A stretch of 33,508 nt of DNA. Source: a virus (Duplodnaviria > Heunggongvirae > Uroviricota > Caudoviricetes). The DNA is taken from IMG/VR virus record IMGVR_UViG_2706794686_000007. One strand, 5' to 3'. This document shows positions 1-23,842 of the stretch, one piece after another; the first letter of the stretch is position 1; the number at the start of each line of letters is the position of its first letter. Both the position numbers and the translations under genes were made by a program. The notes below the pieces were generated by a model, which saw only the letters and a program-made list of their open reading frames with translations, did no database searches and was not told where the DNA came from.

Positions 1-63
1 TCTCAGTTATAAATAGTCAGTAAATAATATATTTTAAAACAGATTTATTTCCAGGAGGATTTT

Positions 64-585
64 ATGGAACTAAAAAATATAACCCGTTATTATCCTGAAA
101 ATATGCCATATGGTAATAATGTTCAGTATTTCCAGAGTGAAGATGGTAAGGATTTCTACGAATCCCTGCCATTATTCACCAAAAAATATAAACTTTGCAT
201 AACACCTGACAGCGGCGTTATCTGCTCAATATCACAGGACGCCTCGGCGCTGTATCCTGCGGGGTTTTCTGTGGTTGAGGTCGATGAACTCCCTGAAGGC
301 ACGGATATTTCAGGAAACTGGAAGTTTGATAATGGCATAATCTCCCGTATTCCGGTTAACTACGCAAGAAAACTGGAAGCAATGCGCCAGTCATATCTTA
401 ATCAGGCATATGAAAAAATTAATGACTGGAGAACGGAGCTACAACTGGGCACCATCAGCGATGAAGACAGAGCAGCACTTACCCAATGGATGGCATACAT
501 CAGTCAGGTGAAGAAAATGGAACTACCCGCCATTAAAACAGAAGCTGAATTTAACGCCATTAAATGGCCTGAGCAGCCACAGTAA
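64..585 (+). CDS. tail fibre assembly protein (Tfa; Mu U / P2 G / lambda Tfa family)
   Basis: 173-aa ORF with aggagg SD upstream; C-terminal region (…DEDRAALTQWMAYISQVKKMELPAIKTEAEFNAIKWPEQPQ) matches the conserved Tfa C-terminal pattern. Visibly AT-rich compared with neighbours; convergent with the tail fibre gene. Confidence 0.8.
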   Translation: MELKNITRYYPENMPYGNNVQYFQSEDGKDFYESLPLFTKKYKLCITPDSGVICSISQDASALYPAGFSVVEVDELPEGTDISGNWKFDNGIISRIPVNYARKLEAMRQSYLNQAYEKINDWRTELQLGTISDEDRAALTQWMAYISQVKKMELPAIKTEAEFNAIKWPEQPQ

Positions 586-588
586 TAA

Positions 589-608
589 AGAAGGCCGGAA
601 GGCCTTCT
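589..608. terminator. bidirectional hairpin between convergent tfa and tail fibre genes
   Basis: AGAAGGCC-GGAA-GGCCTTCT inverted repeat directly after the tfa stop (585) and the tail fibre stop (617); T-rich flank on the minus side (CTTTATTACT). Confidence 0.5.
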
Positions 609-616
609 GAATATCA

Positions 617-1760
617 TTATATACTTGCAGCCGTCACCCATGCTCCATTTAACAGATACTGCAACGGCCGGTAATACACGCCGCCGACGTTATCTGCCGT
701 ATTCTTACCGACATCCTGTACTTTAATTCCGGTAAGAACATTGCCGCCCCCCAGATTCAGANNNNNNNNNNNNNNNNNNNNNNNNNNNNNNNNNNNNNNN
801 NNNNNNNNNNNNNNNNNNNNNNNNNNNNNNNNNNNNNNNNNNNNNNNNNNNNNNNNNNNNNNNNNNNNNNNNNNNNNNNNNNNNNNNNNNNNNNNNNNNN
901 NNNNNNNNNNNNNNNNNNNNNNNNNNNNNNNNNNNNNNNNNNNNNNNNNNNNNNNNNNNNNNNNNNNNNNNNNNNNNNNNNNNNNNNNNNNNNNNNNNNN
1001 NNNNNNNNNNNNNNNNNNNNNNNNNNNNNNTCTCTGCTCCCAGCCTGATATCCTGGATATATCGGGAATCCGCATCCTGCTGTGTTATACCAGAAGTGAT
1101 GTTTATGTCCTGCGTCCCGTCAAAGGGAACCCCATTAATATTTCTTGGGGTGGCGAGTCTATTCGCGGCAACGGCGGTGCCGTCCGATGGCAGAGCATTC
1201 GCCGCCCTGTTTACCGTTTCCCGTAAACCGACGTTATCGATAAAAGCCCCTTTATCCGGAATGTCTGCGCCGTTCTGCTCCCTGCGCAGGTAACGGTTAT
1301 CACCTTCGCTTTTGCTGTAAACATCCAGATTATTACGGGCGGTTCCCTTATTCTCCAGGTCGGCGAGATTCTGATCCTTCGCCAGGGCATTAACGTCAGC
1401 GGGACCAAGACTGTTTTTTGTGGCAAGCGTCCCCAGACCAAGATAACCACGGGCCAGACGCTGGGCCTCCGCACCGGCATCAGCAATTTCTTTCAGGTTA
1501 TTTTTCCGGGAAAAGGCATTCGCAGCGATAATGGCTTTAATGGACAGCGTAAGCTGGTTTAACTGCGCCTTATCCGGCTGAATACTGGCTTCAGCCAGAA
1601 TATTCAGCAGTTCGGCCTGGAGAATATTCAGCCAGTCCTGACCAATCCAGCTGATACCTTTTTGTCCGTCACCTTCGGTAAACCAGGTGGTGGTATTACT
1701 CTGCGCCGGTGCCAGCGCAGGCATATTCGCCACGCCGGAATTATTATCAACATGAAACAT
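617..1760 (-). CDS. tail fibre protein (Mu S / P2 H-like C-terminal region), interrupted by N-mask 762-1030
   Basis: ORF from 1760 runs into the N-run; motifs [23 protein letters not shown] and C-terminal [17 protein letters not shown] resemble P2 gpH as I recall it. Frame across the mask cannot be verified. Confidence 0.75.
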
Positions 1761-2320
1761 TAAATAGTCTCCTCTTCATGGCTGTTTGCATAAACGTAAA
1801 TAAACGTCTGCCATGCAGGCTTATAACGGTTCAGAATACATTCCAGCGCACCGCCTTCATAAATACGCAGCGGCGTGAGAATATCATCCAGCACATTCAT
1901 ATTCCGGTAGCCGGTTTCACTGTTAATCGTGACAATACTGACCCACTGCGAATCCGGTGAGGGCTGAATGTCAATCTGATAACCAAACTCCGCCGCAAAC
2001 CGGATATAAAATTCACGGTTCAGCGAGGGCTTCATCCGGTATTTATTTCCGGCATAACGCTGTCGCTCCGTGAGGGTGGCTCCGGCCATATCACACTCGG
2101 GAAGCCCGAGATAACGCTCCCAGTCTTCCAGCAGCAGGCGCGACGTGTCAGGGAAACGCTCGGCAAGCAGCTGTTTACCCGTCCAGGATACACGCGCTGT
2201 CGAATGACTGAGGCCCAGACATAATGATGCCAGTACGGATGACGGACGCTTGTCCCATGCCAGCCCGTCAGGCAGTAACTGCAACAGGGCGCGCTGATGC
2301 GGGGTCAGGGTTACAGCCAT
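1760..2320 (-). CDS. tail/baseplate protein (Mu gp48-like, DUF2313-type)
   Basis: 186-aa ORF between the baseplate J-like gene and the tail fibre; position and size match Mu gp48; start overlaps the upstream stop. Confidence 0.6.
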
Positions 2321-3393
2321 GTGATTTCTCCTACCGTCAGCAGCTCACTGTCTCCCGCCTGAACTGACGTCAGCGGACTGCGCACTTCAAAATCCTCCAG
2401 ATTTTTCACCCCTGCCACCGCCCGCCAGAAAGACGACGGCAGAACCAGACCGCCGGGCCGGGATTCGTTATACAACAGGTCGGTCAGCGCCTGTTTTACG
2501 GCCGCCTGATTCTCCGGTGTTTTCGGGATGATCCTGATGCTGAAGGGCACCGGCTTATTGGTCAGTTTAAACACGGTCACCGTCGGCCCCAGAGGCTGTC
2601 CGACAGGCTGGCCGGTCGCCGGATCATCATGACTGCGGATATAATCCGCCACCCGCTGAACATCACCGTCACCGGGGAAAATATCCGGGTTATTATCCTG
2701 AACAAACGTTACCCCCACGCTGCCCGCCTGCGGCCATTCCGGGCGGCACCATGCCCGCGTCACGCCCGGCACTTCACGCGCCCAGCGTTCAAAATCATAC
2801 TGCGTGCCGCCGGACGGTGGATTCTGCACCCGGAAAACCAGACGGGAAAGCAGCTCCGGCACGGTTTCCACATCCGCACCACCGGTGATCCCCGTTCCGG
2901 TCACCGTGGCCGTCTGGTTGATCCCCGCCTGCGGTGTGATAAATGTCAGTTTTGTCCCTGCCGGGGCATTCCCCGCACGACCGGCACTTTCGGCTTCCAC
3001 ACTGACATTCAGCGTACCGGCCTTACCGGTCAGGGAGGTGGTGATACGGTAAACCACGCCATCACTTCGCTGGAGAAGCACACCTTCCTTGATCCCCGCA
3101 TCCGTGGTCAGCATCAGCTGAACCGGCCCGTCCCCCCGAGAGGCAGGCTTACGCATGACGCCCCAGAATGCACAGTGTTTCAGCAGTTCGGCTTCATCGG
3201 CTTCGGTCGGGATGATCTGACGCGCAATCCAGGCCAGATGCTCATGCTCCTGAGCAGATAACCCTGCCTGAGCGTAAGCAATGGCATTCAGGGTGGTTTC
3301 ATTCACACCCGGCTGCGAGCCGGGCAGGCGCTGGCTGATATCCTGCTGTGTCTGCGTGATTAACTGTGCCAGCGGTAAAGGCTGATAAGGCAT
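2311..3393 (-). CDS. baseplate J-like protein (Mu gp47-like)
   Basis: 360-aa ORF, translationally coupled to neighbours, in the position of Mu gp47 (baseplate J family). Confidence 0.7.
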   Translation of the reverse strand: MPYQPLPLAQLITQTQQDISQRLPGSQPGVNETTLNAIAYAQAGLSAQEHEHLAWIARQIIPTEADEAELLKHCAFWGVMRKPASRGDGPVQLMLTTDAGIKEGVLLQRSDGVVYRITTSLTGKAGTLNVSVEAESAGRAGNAPAGTKLTFITPQAGINQTATVTGTGITGGADVETVPELLSRLVFRVQNPPSGGTQYDFERWAREVPGVTRAWCRPEWPQAGSVGVTFVQDNNPDIFPGDGDVQRVADYIRSHDDPATGQPVGQPLGPTVTVFKLTNKPVPFSIRIIPKTPENQAAVKQALTDLLYNESRPGGLVLPSSFWRAVAGVKNLEDFEVRSPLTSVQAGDSELLTVGEITWL

Positions 3394-3830
3394 TACTCCC
3401 CCTTAAGATCAGCATAAAAAATCATGGGCCTCACTGAACCATCAGGCAGGGTTATGCGCACCGAAAGCGCCAGCCGCGCGTGTCCCACACGTTCTGCATG
3501 ACAGACCACGGATGACGCCACGCCATCCTGACTGAGCCAGCCCAGCGCCTCATCCGCGTAAGCACGGGCACGGCTTATCACCGAGGCCAGCGTTTTTTCC
3601 CGGCTGAGAAGCCACAGACGGGAGCCAATGGGGCGCGGGCGAAAACTGTCTCCCCACCATCCCCGGCGGTCGCGCGTACCGTCAGGGATTTCATCCGATG
3701 CCAGCGCCCGGCGGTCAGTAAACAGCGAAATCAGAACGGCCGTCAGCAGACTGTCATCCGTCAGCAAGTCGGCACCGTTCAGTTGCAGCGAACCGCACCC
3801 CTGATCCCATACAATTGCAATATCAGCCAT
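3393..3830 (-). CDS. baseplate protein (Mu gp46-like, phage GP46 family)
   Basis: Internal start MADIAIVWDQG… chosen over the ORF-track start at 3974 because the longer version overlaps the upstream gene by about 150 nt. Motifs LFTDRRA and DRRGWWGD resemble the GP46 family. Confidence 0.65.
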   Translation of the reverse strand: MADIAIVWDQGCGSLQLNGADLLTDDSLLTAVLISLFTDRRALASDEIPDGTRDRRGWWGDSFRPRPIGSRLWLLSREKTLASVISRARAYADEALGWLSQDGVASSVVCHAERVGHARLALSVRITLPDGSVRPMIFYADLKGE

Positions 3831-4437
3831 TCTCCGGCGCTCCTGTCTTACTGCCTTTGCCGTTATCCTGATGCACATGGCCGGAATAGGTGATCCCGGC
3901 AATAACGGCATCAGACATCGTGAACAGCCCGTCTGATTTACCTGTACCATCAAGCACGAAATTACCCTTAACATGCAGGTTTTTATCCACCGTCACATTG
4001 CCCGTAAAGGTGGCCTCCGGCGTATCCACCCGCATCCCCTCATCGGCGTAAATCTCCAGCATTTTGCATGTCACAATAATGCGACCATCCTTTGTTAACC
4101 GTATCCGGTGCCCCTCATGGTGATACACCCCCGTATCTCCGGCTGTGAGTCCGGTCGGGCGGCTGCGCCGGTCTTCCACCACAAGCACCACAGTCTGATC
4201 CCGCTGTCCGCCCAGACAGGCAAAAAAGGTTTCCGCACCCGGCAGGGGAACGCTGATCTGCCCGTACTGCTGGGGACGCTCCACATCATCAAAGGTTTCG
4301 CCGTCCATGCCGGTGAGCTGCACATTCTGCATTTTCAGTTCGTCATGTGTGCCGGTCAGAACGCCCCGGCCAAACAACAGGCGAATACCGCGCGTTACCG
4401 GGGCAATCAGGCGGCTGAACACTTCATCATTCATCAA
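3823..4437 (-). CDS. baseplate spike / assembly protein V-like (Mu gp45-like)
   Basis: 204-aa ORF between the P-like and gp46-like genes; Gly-rich C-terminus typical of spike proteins. Confidence 0.6.
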   Translation of the reverse strand: MMNDEVFSRLIAPVTRGIRLLFGRGVLTGTHDELKMQNVQLTGMDGETFDDVERPQQYGQISVPLPGAETFFACLGGQRDQTVVLVVEDRRSRPTGLTAGDTGVYHHEGHRIRLTKDGRIIVTCKMLEIYADEGMRVDTPEATFTGNVTVDKNLHVKGNFVLDGTGKSDGLFTMSDAVIAGITYSGHVHQDNGKGSKTGAPENG

Positions 4438-5551
4438 AGCTGATCCCCTGTTTTTTCATCTGCTGGCGAATAAAGGCATCAACATCGTCACCGGAACCAC
4501 CCCGGCCCTTACTGTCCGGCTCTGCCGGAACGATAAAGCCGTCACGCGGTGCCAGTACCAGCCGGGTGACTTCCCCGTTATGTTCATCAAGTAAAAACTC
4601 CACCTGACAGACCAGCAGTTCAGTCTGTTCTATACCGAAACGCAGGGCTGAAACACCGGTCAGCAGATTGACATCCCATAACCGGCCATCATCCCGGAAC
4701 CAGCCACGCACGGTGGCAGAAAACCGTTCTGAACGGGCAATCGCACGGCGCATTTCACGCAGGGCACGCTGCCGTGCACCGGTGGTGTCTGTCTGTTGAT
4801 CGGCGAGGATGATTTTCGACCGGTAGCGGCCGATCTGCTCATCACTGATGACGCCCACAGGTGCTGCCAGACGGGCGGCGGATTCGCTGTCTCCCCGTTT
4901 GCCACCACCGCGCCCGTGTCCCCGGACACGGTATTCGCTGTATCGTCCTCGCCAGTCCGTGTTGTAATCGGCATCAAGCAGGTTATCTCCCAGCACCAGT
5001 CTGTCCGTCTGCTGGCTTCCTGCCTGGGTGAACACCAGATCGCCGTCAGCATTACTGGTCACCAGCACCCCGCGATGCCGGGCAGCACGGGTCAGCGCAT
5101 CCGCCACGGTTTCTGAGTTTTCCAGCGTAAAAGAGCTGAAGGGGCGTGCAGCCGTGTCGTCGTTAACCTGCCAGCGCACGGCTATCCCGAAGGGCGCACA
5201 TAAATCTGCGGCAATCTGTGCCAGCGTCCGGTTGCGCCACTGGCTGCCGGGATGGATGGCGGCACAGTCCACCAGGTCGCCGGTTTTATCCCGACCGCTG
5301 ATGCTGATCTGATGACGGGTTGCACTGATCCGCTGACTGACCTGATCCAGCCAGCCACTGATGACCGTCTGCCCGTTAATTCTGAGCGTCAGGGACTGAC
5401 CGGTTCGCAGGGCTGAGGGGATGCGCTCACCGGGCAGCATCAGCCCCAGTTCAAACGACCCGGCCAGATGCTCCAGCGAGCGACGGACGCTGACCGTCAG
5501 CCAGCCGGAAAAAATACTGCCACCGATATACAGTTCAATCCTGCTGCTCAC
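4427..5551 (-). CDS. tail protein P-like (baseplate hub, gpD-like)
   Basis: 374-aa ORF directly after N, as in Mu (N then P); start overlaps the end of N. Confidence 0.7.
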   Translation of the reverse strand: MSSRIELYIGGSIFSGWLTVSVRRSLEHLAGSFELGLMLPGERIPSALRTGQSLTLRINGQTVISGWLDQVSQRISATRHQISISGRDKTGDLVDCAAIHPGSQWRNRTLAQIAADLCAPFGIAVRWQVNDDTAARPFSSFTLENSETVADALTRAARHRGVLVTSNADGDLVFTQAGSQQTDRLVLGDNLLDADYNTDWRGRYSEYRVRGHGRGGGKRGDSESAARLAAPVGVISDEQIGRYRSKIILADQQTDTTGARQRALREMRRAIARSERFSATVRGWFRDDGRLWDVNLLTGVSALRFGIEQTELLVCQVEFLLDEHNGEVTRLVLAPRDGFIVPAEPDSKGRGGSGDDVDAFIRQQMKKQGISFDE

Positions 5552-6893
5552 TGATCACCTCCACGCTGCGGCCACCCGGAACAAAAACCGGATCGGGGAT
5601 ATTGTTTCTGCGGACAAAATACTGCCAGCGACTGCTGTTGCCGGTGGCACGGTACAGCGTGACCAGTGCCGGTTCGGTGGTGCGAACCATGACCTGAAAA
5701 GCACCGGGAAGATGCACGCTCCGTGTGGTTAAATCTTCTGTCAGCGCAAGCCCTGCATCACGTAATGCAAGGGCAGTCCCGGTATAGCCCTGTGCGGACA
5801 GATCCAGCACCTGTTGTTCCATGGCATCGCTCAAATCCCGGTTGATACGCTGCACATCAGCAGAACTTTCCAGCCAGGCCAGTCCGCCCGAACGGTCAGT
5901 ATCCTGAACGTGCGTCGTATTCTGCCGGATGACCTGATCCAGCAGTTTTCCGAGCGTCTGTGCCTGCGACACCAGGGTTGCACTCTGCATCACGCTCCGC
6001 AGCAGACGGATATTTTTCTGTGCCGCAGGCGTCAGGCCAATCAGGCGCTGTGGATCATCCTGTTCGCTGAGGGTGTAACGCAGGGAGGAAAGTGTGCGGT
6101 ACAGCTGCGGCATGGCCTGCTCTGCCATGCTGTCACGGTTTGTGGTCAGGCTGCCGGACGGCGTTCCGGCTTTTCCGGTCAGAGACAGGGAAGGATCGCC
6201 GGGCAGCCCGGTCAGCACGGCAAACATTCCGGCCAGCGATTCAGCCATGCGACGGGGCGCATTAATCAGGGCGGCGGCATTGCCTTTCAGGGCAGTAAAA
6301 CTGGCCGTAAAGGCACTGATATCCTGCACAATCCCCATCCCCGAAACGGCATTCTCCAGTGCATCAATCTTATCGCTGATGGTGTCGGTCATGGCCTGTA
6401 CATCATGCAGACCGTCTGAAATCACCGTCCAGCCGTCTGAAAGCGTGTTAAACAGCTGATTCATTGCTGAGCCGCTTTTCTGCTCCAGCGCAGCTGCCGT
6501 ATCTTCTGCCACCGCAGGGGCGGTATCGTCACTGGCGGGGATCACGTTGATCGTGAACTCAACCGTTCCCTGCTCGCTGGCGTTATAACGGCTTTCAAAG
6601 CTGTTTATCAGCACGTTTAACGTGCCGTAATCCGGGTGCATCAGTTCACCGGCACCGGGTGCACGCAGCGCATCACGCAGGCGGCTTCGCTGTGTCTGAA
6701 GATCGTCTCCGGTCACCAGAACCGTGAATGTGAACTCCGGGAGTTTTGGCCCCAGATCATCCGCACCGCCGCTTTCACGCAGTGGGTATTCACGGCGCAC
6801 AATGTTACGTCCGCCCCGTTCCCGCTGCTCCTGATAAACCAGGAACGGTACGCCACGAAAGGAGCCACGCCCCGGCGTGTCAGTAGAGGCCAT
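5535..6893 (-). CDS. DNA circularisation protein N-like
   Basis: 452-aa ORF after the tape measure gene; N-terminal motif …GRGSFRGVPFLV… resembles the Mu N family signature. Confidence 0.75.
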   Translation of the reverse strand: MASTDTPGRGSFRGVPFLVYQEQRERGGRNIVRREYPLRESGGADDLGPKLPEFTFTVLVTGDDLQTQRSRLRDALRAPGAGELMHPDYGTLNVLINSFESRYNASEQGTVEFTINVIPASDDTAPAVAEDTAAALEQKSGSAMNQLFNTLSDGWTVISDGLHDVQAMTDTISDKIDALENAVSGMGIVQDISAFTASFTALKGNAAALINAPRRMAESLAGMFAVLTGLPGDPSLSLTGKAGTPSGSLTTNRDSMAEQAMPQLYRTLSSLRYTLSEQDDPQRLIGLTPAAQKNIRLLRSVMQSATLVSQAQTLGKLLDQVIRQNTTHVQDTDRSGGLAWLESSADVQRINRDLSDAMEQQVLDLSAQGYTGTALALRDAGLALTEDLTTRSVHLPGAFQVMVRTTEPALVTLYRATGNSSRWQYFVRRNNIPDPVFVPGGRSVEVISEQQD

Positions 6894-8937
6894 AGTTCCC
6901 TCCGTTCCAGACGTTCACATCCAGGCCATGCTGTGCGGTATCATCCACATCAATACTGCGCGCCCGCCAGCCTTCAGGGGCAACAAGCTCCACCCGTGCG
7001 GCGGTTTTCGCGGTGGCCTGTCCGCCGTTTTCGTCACTGCCGCCACGCAGTTTCTGCCAGGCCTGCGTCAGCCAGCCCCCCAGATAATCACCGAGATAGC
7101 TGCCCACCGTGGAACCAATGGCAACCCCGACCGGACCGGCAGCCGCCCCCAGCGCGCCACCGGCGATACTTCCGGCAAGGGAACCCACGGCACCGGCTTT
7201 ATCGGCTGCACTGGCGCTGCTGTCCAGCAGTACAGGAGCCGCCATGGCACCGGCCCACAGGGCACCACCACCCAGCCGACCGGCACCACGGAACAGCCCG
7301 GCAAAACGCCCCAGCCCCATGCGGTTTCCGGCCGCCGTTAGCAGACCACCGGCACGGCTCATCATACGACCGAAGAAGCCCTGTTTACCGGCACTCTCCG
7401 CCAGTTGCTCACCGGCAGTCACGACGGTCGTGACACCCCGTCCACGTCCGGGGCCGCGTTTTTTACGGCCGCGCACGGTTTTGCCGTCACCGCTGACCAC
7501 CACATCCCCGCCACCTGAGGCCAGGCCACCCGCAGGCCAATTGGTGACCAGCACGGGCTGAACGGCAGCCGGATTTACCCCGGTAAGGAAATTCAGGAAC
7601 CGGCCAGCGCGTCCGGGCTGCGTTCCCGGTACAGTGGTCTGCGGTTTGCGGAAGGGCGACGTCAGCACGGAGGTCATCGCCATGCCATAGCGTAAGGGGG
7701 TTGCGCCGAGACGTAATGCCCCCGTCCCCGCAAACCTGAGCACCTTCAGCGCACGGGAGGCGAGATACATATACATCAGGTACTTTGCGGCGGTCTGCGC
7801 ACCCTGACCAATGCGATCCAGCGCATCGCCATAACCGGCGTCGCGCAGTGCCTGAAGCGTTTCCCTGACTTTCTGAATGACCCGGTAAAAGCCGGTCGCA
7901 GCGTCTCTGGCATACTCAAATCCCTGATTCAGGGCTGAGGCCGTCTGTGTGGCCAGCTTATCCTGTAAGCCGCTTTTCTGTGCCGCATCAGCATAATCCA
8001 GAAAGCCTTTCAGGCTCTTTTTCAGGCTGTCAAACGGTCCCTTTGCCATCACCTCGCGGGCAAATCCGTCCCAGACATCGCCCATCATGGACGTCATTCC
8101 CGTCCAGGAATTCATGGCGTTTTTCTGGGCACCTTTTGCCTGTTCGGCCATCACCTGAAATAACAGGCGAATGCTGTCCGGTCCCAGTTTTCCTTTCTCG
8201 CCTTTCTCACGGATGATCTTCTGGTTTACACCCAGCTTATCGGCCAGCAACTGGTAAACGTTAATCCCGTATCCGGTCAGAATATTGGCGTCCGCTGCCT
8301 GGATACTCTGGCGGGCAAACATCTGTTTGAGTTGCAGGGACGCACCCTGTGCATCTGACAGTGACCAGCCGTGATAGCCGCCCTGATCCTGAAGCATGGT
8401 AATAAAGCGACGGGCTTCCCTGTCACTCATACCGAACCCGCGACTGGAGGCGTATTCCTGCATAACCCCCGCCAGCCCCCAGGTGGTGTCTTTGGCGTTC
8501 TGTACCGCCCAGGCTTTCACTGCTTCCGTTTTTGCCGTATCGCCATGATTAATGGCGTTGAGACGCAGAATATAGTTCTCCATCTCTGCGGCCGGGCGGA
8601 TAAAGGCTTTATTAAACCCGTAGACCGCAGCCCCTCCCGCCAGCATCCCGTAAAGGTTGCTTATCCGCCCGATGGTGCCGGTAATGCTGCCCTGAAGGCG
8701 GTCAAAATCTGACGTCACCGTGCGGATACTGCCACGAACACCGGCAAGCGTTCGCTGCATACGGGAGCCGACAAGTTCTGTCTCCTGACCGGCACGACGT
8801 GCTGCATTTCCAAGACCACCCAGCCCCGTCCTGCCGGAACGGGAGAATGCCCCCAGCTCCTGTGACCACTGGCGGGATTTGGCAGAAATATTGCCGAGTA
8901 AATCGACAATCAGGGAGGCTTTCAGGTTTTTTGCCAT
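6880..8937 (-). CDS. tail tape measure protein
   Basis: 685-aa ORF, Gly/Ala-rich with a low-complexity C-terminal third, downstream of the tail assembly chaperone. Confidence 0.8.
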   Translation of the reverse strand: MAKNLKASLIVDLLGNISAKSRQWSQELGAFSRSGRTGLGGLGNAARRAGQETELVGSRMQRTLAGVRGSIRTVTSDFDRLQGSITGTIGRISNLYGMLAGGAAVYGFNKAFIRPAAEMENYILRLNAINHGDTAKTEAVKAWAVQNAKDTTWGLAGVMQEYASSRGFGMSDREARRFITMLQDQGGYHGWSLSDAQGASLQLKQMFARQSIQAADANILTGYGINVYQLLADKLGVNQKIIREKGEKGKLGPDSIRLLFQVMAEQAKGAQKNAMNSWTGMTSMMGDVWDGFAREVMAKGPFDSLKKSLKGFLDYADAAQKSGLQDKLATQTASALNQGFEYARDAATGFYRVIQKVRETLQALRDAGYGDALDRIGQGAQTAAKYLMYMYLASRALKVLRFAGTGALRLGATPLRYGMAMTSVLTSPFRKPQTTVPGTQPGRAGRFLNFLTGVNPAAVQPVLVTNWPAGGLASGGGDVVVSGDGKTVRGRKKRGPGRGRGVTTVVTAGEQLAESAGKQGFFGRMMSRAGGLLTAAGNRMGLGRFAGLFRGAGRLGGGALWAGAMAAPVLLDSSASAADKAGAVGSLAGSIAGGALGAAAGPVGVAIGSTVGSYLGDYLGGWLTQAWQKLRGGSDENGGQATAKTAARVELVAPEGWRARSIDVDDTAQHGLDVNVWNGGNYGLY

Positions 8938-23401: not shown

Positions 23402-23842
23402 NNNNNNNNNNNNNNNNNNNNNNNNNNNNNNNNNNNNNNNNNNNNNNNNNNNNNNNNNNNNNNNNNNNNNNNNNNNNNNNNNNNNNNNNNNNNNNNNNNN
23501 NNNNNNNNNNNNNNNNNNNNNNNNNNNNNNNNNNNNNNNNNNNNNNNNNNNNNNNNNNNNNNNNNNNNNNNNNNNNNNNNNNNNNNNNNNNNNNNNNNNN
23601 NNNNNNNNNNNNNNNNNNNNNNNNNNNNNNNNNNNNNNNNNNNNNNNNNNNNNNNNNNNNNNNNCCGCCTGAGCAGGTTCAATCCCCTGACGGTGCAGTT
23701 CAGCACTGATCACATCAACCAGGTCCCGCAGCGTGCCGGGCCAGTTCTTTTTCAGCTCATCATCAGGAATATCATCCAGACGGTCAATCAGCGCGTGCAG
23801 CTGTTCGCTGTCACCAAACATGCTCATCTGTGTTTCAGCCAT
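23402..23842 (-). CDS. Mor/C-family transcriptional activator, 3' part N-masked
   Basis: N-terminus MAETQMSMFGDSEQLHALIDRLDD…GIEPAQA resembles the Mu Mor N-terminus as I recall it; SD GGAGG upstream; the rest is hidden by the N-run. Confidence 0.55.

Follow-up and report, generated by a model that had tools for sequence, protein, structure and literature searches.

A probable Gin-type invertible tail-fibre segment with a single chaperone gene in a Mu-like prophage of Escherichia coli and Shigella

1. Introduction

Serine invertases of the Din family (Gin/Cin/Pin/Hin) swap the C-termini of tail fibres in the C segment of P1 (Cin), the P segment of e14 (Pin) and a Mu-like locus of the enteropathogenic Escherichia coli (EPEC) strain E2348/69, and the described system closest to the locus presented here is the G segment of phage Mu with its invertase Gin, also found in D108 and SfMu. 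P1 and e14 carry two tfa (tail fibre assembly) genes. In Mu, the segment measures 3.06 kb, its variable cassette extends over about 330 residues from the crossover site, and the two fibre tips are accompanied by a pair of chaperone genes, U and U' (layout S-U/U'-S'). Two chaperone genes were likewise described for SfMu (PMC4406740), and inversion in e14 and in the Mu-like prophage of E2348/69 was confirmed by sequencing and PCR (PMC4272514). A further group, comprising Min of p15B, the shufflons and a three-repeat P2-like EPEC locus, undergoes multiple site-specific inversions that yield hybrid tips on fibres or pili. Tail fibre genes with programmed inversions have been widely catalogued (PMC9881135). 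No paper describing a variant with one tfa gene was found in a limited literature search.

Here, we analyse a stretch of 33,508 nucleotides (IMG/VR record IMGVR_UViG_2706794686_000007), hereafter the window, the left end of which very probably covers the right portion of an invertible tail-fibre segment, of Gin type, in a Mu-like prophage, presented in a record that mixes both inversion states. The gene order is the one known from Mu, D108 and SfMu (gp43 to gp48, fibre, invertible segment, invertase, com/mom). The segment differs from that of Mu by its size (1.3 kb), by the length of its variable cassettes (about 120 residues from the crossover site) and by the presence of one tfa gene between two short paralogous cassettes in place of the U/U' pair; with one tfa instead of a pair, one of the two states is therefore left without a co-directional chaperone gene for its fibre. 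Indeed, an own chaperone gene for each tip, as provided by the two genes of Mu and of the E2348/69 prophage, is not what we found here.

The E2348/69 locus shares with P1, e14 and the present locus a Din-family invertase system that swaps fibre C-termini, but differs by its two convergent tfa genes and its e14-type repeat, AAACCTTGGTTTGGGAGAA. It is a different, two-tfa segment and therefore not direct experimental evidence for the one-tfa family. In the genome of E. coli E2348/69 (L047, NC_011601.1 2749191-2751433), we observed this two-tfa layout, with no recombinase annotated between the locus and the flanking eut genes.

2. Material and methods

Comparator genomes and contigs are designated by L-numbers where they need to be told apart. 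A set of 14 relatives, the window's own source not among them, was obtained from a scan of viral contigs, whereas a scan of genome contigs for an exact pattern gave no hit. The proteins encoded near the fibre in the window are too common to point to one source genome. Further relatives 100% identical to the window (L040-L043, L045) were retrieved through exact-protein look-ups, the queries being Tfa, the tape measure protein, the portal protein, the 47-aa Sv tail and a chimeric cassette, P0115, described below. The invertase, the partner crossover site and most of the S'v cassette lie outside the window, and what is said of them is derived from relatives 100% identical over the visible flanks. 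We call Sc the constant 5' part of the fibre gene, Sv and S'v the two alternative C-terminal cassettes, state A the arrangement with a convergent tfa and state B the arrangement with a co-directional tfa.

3. Results and discussion

A Mu-like prophage in reversed orientation

Judging by its ORFs and Pfam families, and by a near-identical annotated prophage in the complete E. coli genome HH35, the window is most of a Mu-like prophage of E. coli/Shigella, reversed, with the Tfa/fibre region at the G-segment end of the prophage. ORF listing and Pfam scans place Mu-type tail and baseplate genes (Gp48, Baseplate_J, onward) on the minus strand, and a Mu-type transposase and repressor region at the far right. 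The HH35 prophage, 99.1-99.9% identical to the visible window, is annotated with a Mu transposase, Mor, Gam, Mu-like head genes and com/mom. From this annotation and from the Pfam families of relatives, transposase A/B, Mor, Gam and a head and baseplate set are all present, as is characteristic of Mu-like (transposable) prophages. Positions 1-761, which include the tfa gene, are 100% identical to about 20 complete E. coli genomes. The host sequences flanking the prophage differ strain by strain; the prophage occupies a different chromosomal site in each strain and has therefore transposed recently.

Table 1. Features at the left end of the window (strand: +, plus; -, minus;., not stranded).
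Feature	Position	Strand	Description
S'v end	1-12	+	closing four codons (S Q L stop) of the alternative C-terminal cassette; remainder left of the window
AT-rich leader	13-63	+	between the cassette stop and tfa; Shine-Dalgarno AGGAGG at 53-58
tfa	64-585	+	tail fibre assembly protein, PF02413, E 4.8e-19; sole chaperone gene of the invertible segment
Hairpin AGAAGGCC-GGAA-GGCCTTCT	589-608	.	8-bp stem, G+C-rich, between convergent stops
Sv tail	617-761	-	47 codons and stop; other C-terminal cassette; stop at 617-619
N-run	762-1030	.	most likely a scaffold gap, length unreliable; flanks from different inversion states
S'v head	1031-1212	-	inside the invertible segment; 100% identical to L006 5607-5788 and to L002
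gix-like site TTATCGATAACGTCGGTTTACGGGAA	1218-1243	-	26 bp, core TC at 1230-1231; 22/26 bases identical to Mu gix
Sc, constant 5' part of fibre	1244-1760	-	ATG at 1758-1760, abutting the gp48 gene

Crossover sites, invertase and alternative cassette

Residues 1-198 of the fibre are 47% identical to residues 1-191 of Mu S, and homologues of Mu gp48 and gp47 are encoded upstream of the gene. At the end of this constant part stands a crossover site homologous to Mu gix (table 1), which is the sole match in the window in a scan with Mu gix, none being expected by chance. The bases that follow the site, ACGGTAAAC, match Mu too, and the site sits at the same fibre codon position as the boundary of the Mu G segment. 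Its partner, TTCCTGAAAACCTCGGTTTACGGGAA, is inverted and located between the invertase and the silent cassette in relatives, adjoining the invertase in L001, L002, L006 and L038/L039; a TC core is present in both sites. Imperfect inverted repeats of 86 and 50 nt run inward from the sites, the resemblance of bases 1105-1212, in the S'v head, to the Sv head being such an inverted repeat.

The candidate invertase is best described from L001 (NCCP15648), where the start codon of a 190-aa ‘recombinase family protein’ lies about 430 nt left of the window start. Over 184 aa, this recombinase shares 74% identity with Mu Gin, and it matches the Gin structures 4M6F and 3UJ3 (E 2.5e-88); its domains are PF00239 and HTH_7, and the N-terminal MLIGYIRVSTNDQ motif is conserved. 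The layout left of the window, with a silent cassette and then the recombinase, recurs in every relative fetched.

Gin-type segments require a promoterless alternative C-terminal cassette facing the opposite way, and such a cassette is present in the relatives, its end being visible as window 1-12. These 12 bases are identical to the end of L001 feature 7638-8012, annotated in RefSeq as ‘phage tail protein, missing N-terminus’, and to that of the 296-aa L006 fibre. The other cassette is visible in the window by its tail, 100% identical to the last stretch of the gene for the 293-aa fibre in state-A genomes such as L001 (8617-8761). The Sv and S'v tips are paralogues with a tip domain of roughly 70 residues, also carried by Mu S and S', so that the tips of both phages have a homologous C-terminal domain in common (...RLG...G.V.TG...YRP.Q...G.W...S).

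These comparisons settle several points raised by an earlier, sequence-only reading of the window. The alternative fibre and the invertase that it placed beyond the left edge both stand within 1 kb to the left in genomes identical to window 1-761, and the inverted repeats that it expected in the unmasked part of the fibre were found, together with the gix-like site. Its suggestion that the N-run could hide a crossover site was mistaken, the site being visible at 1218-1243.

Beyond the recombinase, L001 contains a SASA/DUF6645 gene, two small DUF genes and com/mom. In the interval between invertase and com/mom (L001 2501-6915, L003 438-4852), a 684-aa protein combines a SASA domain (sialate O-acetylesterase-like, PF03629) with DUF6645, and small DUF1378 and DUF826 genes share this interval in relatives. 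These three extra genes are a further difference from Mu, which has nothing there, and may provide a second receptor-interacting or surface-modifying function.

Two states related by an exact inversion

The E. coli strains FORC_029 and NCCP 13983 are identical over the 8 kb compared, except for a flip of 1,315 bp. When the breakpoints are set at the two TC cores, the intervening 1,315 nt are an exact reverse complement, and the flanks are identical over 2,884 nt to the left and 3,794 nt to the right. Judged from this alignment, the difference between the two strains is a clean conservative site-specific inversion, in agreement with the Mu G-like invertible layout in two orientations that had been proposed for the window. 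Together with the Gin-family invertase, the paired inverted sites and the silent cassette, the occurrence of both orientations completes the features that characterize Din-family systems (Gin/Cin/Pin/Hin).

State B is found in STEC2018-553, FORC_043, NCCP 13983, L006 and the Shigella sonnei scaffold L043, with the order 296-aa fibre, same-strand tfa, convergent fibre fragment and invertase. State A accounts for about 23 of the best 30 matches among complete genomes, and state B for 3. Draft contigs moreover break at the site: a scaffold gap begins at window-equivalent 1195 in L031, two Logan contigs stop here as well, ERR9438916_14 at about 1202 and L045 exactly at the site core, and the IMG/VR contigs L021 and L024 end within the repeat. 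Such breaks are expected if cultures hold both states.

Recombination at the two TC cores, very probably by the invertase, flips the 1,315 bp between them, a segment in which S'v, the leader, the one tfa and the hairpin are followed by Sv facing the other way. In state B, the fibre consists of Sc and S'v (296 aa), with tfa downstream on the same strand, in the late operon. In state A, it consists of Sc and Sv (293 aa) and stops at the hairpin, tfa being convergent. The flip would be predicted to change receptor specificity or host range.

Convergence of tfa and fibre could also be permanent, the switch being dead and the invertase and silent cassette lost. This has happened in some relatives: L028 and L032 (JE86-ST02, S1-CAM-01-A) have the fibre gix site and a convergent tfa, without partner site, silent cassette or invertase. 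For the window, however, a fixed arrangement is very improbable. Indeed, the silent cassette, absent from the frozen variants, has its end in window 1-12; all relatives identical to window 1-761 have both the cassette and an intact invertase; and the invertase is present in the S. sonnei scaffold identical to window 1031-8265. An invertible segment of Gin type thus accounts better for the left end of the window.

A single tfa gene as a trait of the lineage

The sequence-only reading had described tfa as the only Tfa gene, convergent on the plus strand, AT-rich, with its own Shine-Dalgarno sequence and an AT-rich leader, and the present analysis agrees with it on each of these points (PF02413 at 64-585; AGGAGG at 53-58, 5 nt ahead of the tfa ATG). 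Exactly one PF02413 gene stands between fibre and invertase in about 30 related loci. The G+C content is 22% in the 51-nt leader and 42.5% in tfa, whereas the baseplate genes reach 58% and the window as a whole 54.5%.

The minus-strand stop attributed to the fibre at 617 was likewise recovered, the frame ending at 617-619, and so was the hairpin between the stops of Tfa and fibre. This hairpin (-16.4 kcal/mol, z -3.8) is terminator-like on the fibre-sense strand in L006 and is likely a terminator. The diverged relatives L044 and L028 have a hairpin of different sequence at the equivalent place. On the tfa strand of the equivalent L006 region, leader included, no sigma-70 promoter for tfa was found, overall matches being at chance level.

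A G+C content below that of the neighbouring genes, and an identity to the Mu chaperones of merely 28% (U) and 32% (U'), could be taken as signs of a foreign insertion unrelated to the fibre, either a moron or a remnant of another phage. We hold this origin to be extremely improbable, as tfa lies within the invertible segment in all relatives and directly after the fibre, on the same strand, in state B, and as the one-tfa layout is kept in a diverged relative whose Tfa is 62% identical. Mu U and U' also share the low G+C content (44% and 42.5%, versus 54% for the Mu baseplate genes), so that the composition of tfa is not special. The term ‘compositionally foreign’ that had been applied to it was overstated: this is the usual low G+C of fibre-tip/Tfa modules.

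As far as the relatives indicate, the single tfa is a trait of the phage lineage rather than the outcome of a loss. The earlier remark that a same-strand Tfa is missing is thus accurate as a description and inaccurate as the record of a loss, since this lineage has one tfa in its segment.

As the two tips share a homologous C-terminal domain, one Tfa could plausibly serve both. In the proposed mechanism, the single Tfa would serve both tips, being either expressed regardless of orientation or dispensable for Sv. That a phage with a convergent tfa can function is suggested, though not proved, by three observations: the predominance of state A in sequenced lysogens, the varied insertion sites, and the frozen relatives, in which the convergent tfa is intact although the invertase is lacking. 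Tentatively, we put forward two forms that this could take: one Tfa shared by both tips and expressed on its own (e.g. through the leader, with the hairpin as a two-way terminator), or an inversion that acts as an on/off switch of chaperone supply. If either were true, the locus would be a compact Mu switch whose orientation determines more than the sequence of the tip; if the on/off reading were true, state A, the commoner one in sequenced lysogens, would give fibres without co-transcribed Tfa.

The chimeric fibre across the N-run

The window itself corresponds to neither state. Right of the N-run, bases 1031-1212 are the S'v head, whereas left of it, bases 617-761 are the Sv tail in state-A orientation. 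In every comparator, the S'v head runs into the S'v tail, window 1-12, the leader and tfa, all on the same strand. The region 617-1760 had been taken as one fibre gene merely masked in part, a view that was not confirmed: the reading frames differ on the two sides of the N-run, the flanks come from different cassettes, and an S'v head joined to an Sv tail on one strand occurs in none of 5,426 complete E. coli genomes. Neither was the arrangement of the window found in the 100%-identical L040-L043 and L045. Both halves are present and 100% identical in L006, but there the 1-761 block is reversed and lies at a distance of 149 nt.

The length of the N-run is of little help. In L040, a contig that matches window 7261-28893 at 100% identity, the place of a run of 263 N is taken by 250 nt and that of a run of 270 N by 240 nt. 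N-run lengths being unfaithful, frames and distances across the runs are therefore untrustworthy. The two other runs are located at 23402-23664, in the Mor region, and at 27359-27628, inside Gam; none of the three runs is length-true.

The S. sonnei scaffold L043 offers a parallel case. It is 100% identical to window 1031-8265, holds the window 1-761 block in reverse orientation, and has a run of 250 N over the partner site, with the chimeric cassette P0115 beside it. P0115 (L043 7177-7485) is a silent cassette into which 57 nt are inserted that are identical to the head of its counterpart (...RYIQDI|TISSG...). It is a single sequence in the protein collection; either the inverted repeats underwent gene conversion or the assembly is chimeric at this point.

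We consider it probable that the chimera across the N-run is a scaffold artefact of a short-read draft, probably of S. sonnei or a close E. coli, obtained from a culture of mixed orientation, because the junction exists in no complete genome, because N-run lengths are unfaithful, and because the sister scaffold L043 has its own N-run and chimera. If L043 is taken at face value, the distance from the site core to base 761 in state A would be about 263 nt, close to the 269 N of the window and consistent with a contig that originally terminated at the core and that gap filling then lengthened.

A real chimeric fibre appears unlikely in comparison. It would suppose a secondary rearrangement joining the S'v head to the Sv tail, by illegitimate or homologous recombination between the cassettes or by action of the invertase at a pseudo-site, and would leave a hybrid, possibly frameshifted fibre with tfa locked in the convergent orientation. 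Short repeats common to both cassettes, e.g. CAGGATATC, could have served such an event, and each visible flank is 100% identical to natural sequence; S'v, however, has no gix-like pseudo-site at 7 or fewer mismatches. P0115 shows that another hybrid cassette, different from this one and in frame, exists within the lineage, in an S. sonnei scaffold, but it is the only exception in a protein search that returned no matching hybrid. Similarly, an independent Logan contig begins at the same base, window-equivalent 760, yet this shared break adjoins a G6/GGC motif, and such motifs are a cause of Illumina coverage drops. The absence of the junction from the 5,426 complete genomes also speaks against a real hybrid, and the unfaithful N-run lengths, together with the N-run at the partner site of the sister scaffold, point to an assembly problem. 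A scaffold artefact is thus the reading that we retain. Whether artefact or real hybrid, the relative orientation of tfa and fibre seen in the window is not permanent in this phage.

Multiple-inversion systems were considered as well, because the window pairs the head of one cassette with the tail of the other. They resemble the present case by the hybrid tips that site-specific inversion creates, but differ in that the relatives examined here have two gix-like sites only, and none within the cassettes. A third crossover site within the cassettes was rejected, since no sequence there comes as close to Mu gix as 7 mismatches. We also rejected a long hybrid cassette of natural origin: it occurs in 0 of the 5,426 complete genomes, and a protein query made of head and tail returned fragments and P0115 only.

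Consequences for annotation and assembly

The mechanism is a textbook host-range switch, and its 1.3-kb one-chaperone form a modest architectural variant; the main value of its recognition is therefore practical. The switch explains the inconsistent ‘fibre’, ‘tfa’ and ‘partial tail protein’ annotations across genomes carrying this very common Mu-like prophage of E. coli/Shigella, as well as the tendency of draft assemblies to break or turn chimeric at the fibre locus. N-runs in such records should not be read as length-true masks. The one-chaperone layout further raises the questions of whether one Tfa can fold two tips and of how it is expressed when facing the late operon.

Other observations on the prophage and its relatives

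ARAGORN detected no tRNA in the whole window; in the HH35 prophage, however, the RefSeq annotation includes a ‘tRNA-OTHER’ flanked by the virion morphogenesis and minor head genes (L037 22726-22805, about window 15860-15940). The frozen variants L028 (17178-18950) and L032 encode a 303-aa fibre with an intact gix site, and their SASA/DUF6645 gene follows tfa at about 300 nt.

At its right end (33445-33508), the prophage adjoins a multi-copy sequence with matches in thousands of E. coli records, the window stopping 64 nt into it. The translation of this sequence is, as we read it, presumably IS66-family TnpB-like, and transposase domains of the IS66 family are encoded beyond Mom in the S. sonnei scaffold (L043 1317-1775). 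Because of this right end and of the gene beyond Mom, the prophage appears to be inserted in an IS66-family element.

Deletion derivatives of the prophage were also encountered: P0128 is a 178-aa fusion of the Gp45 N-terminus and the Sv tail, and the prophage loci of L004 and L010 are devoid of baseplate genes.
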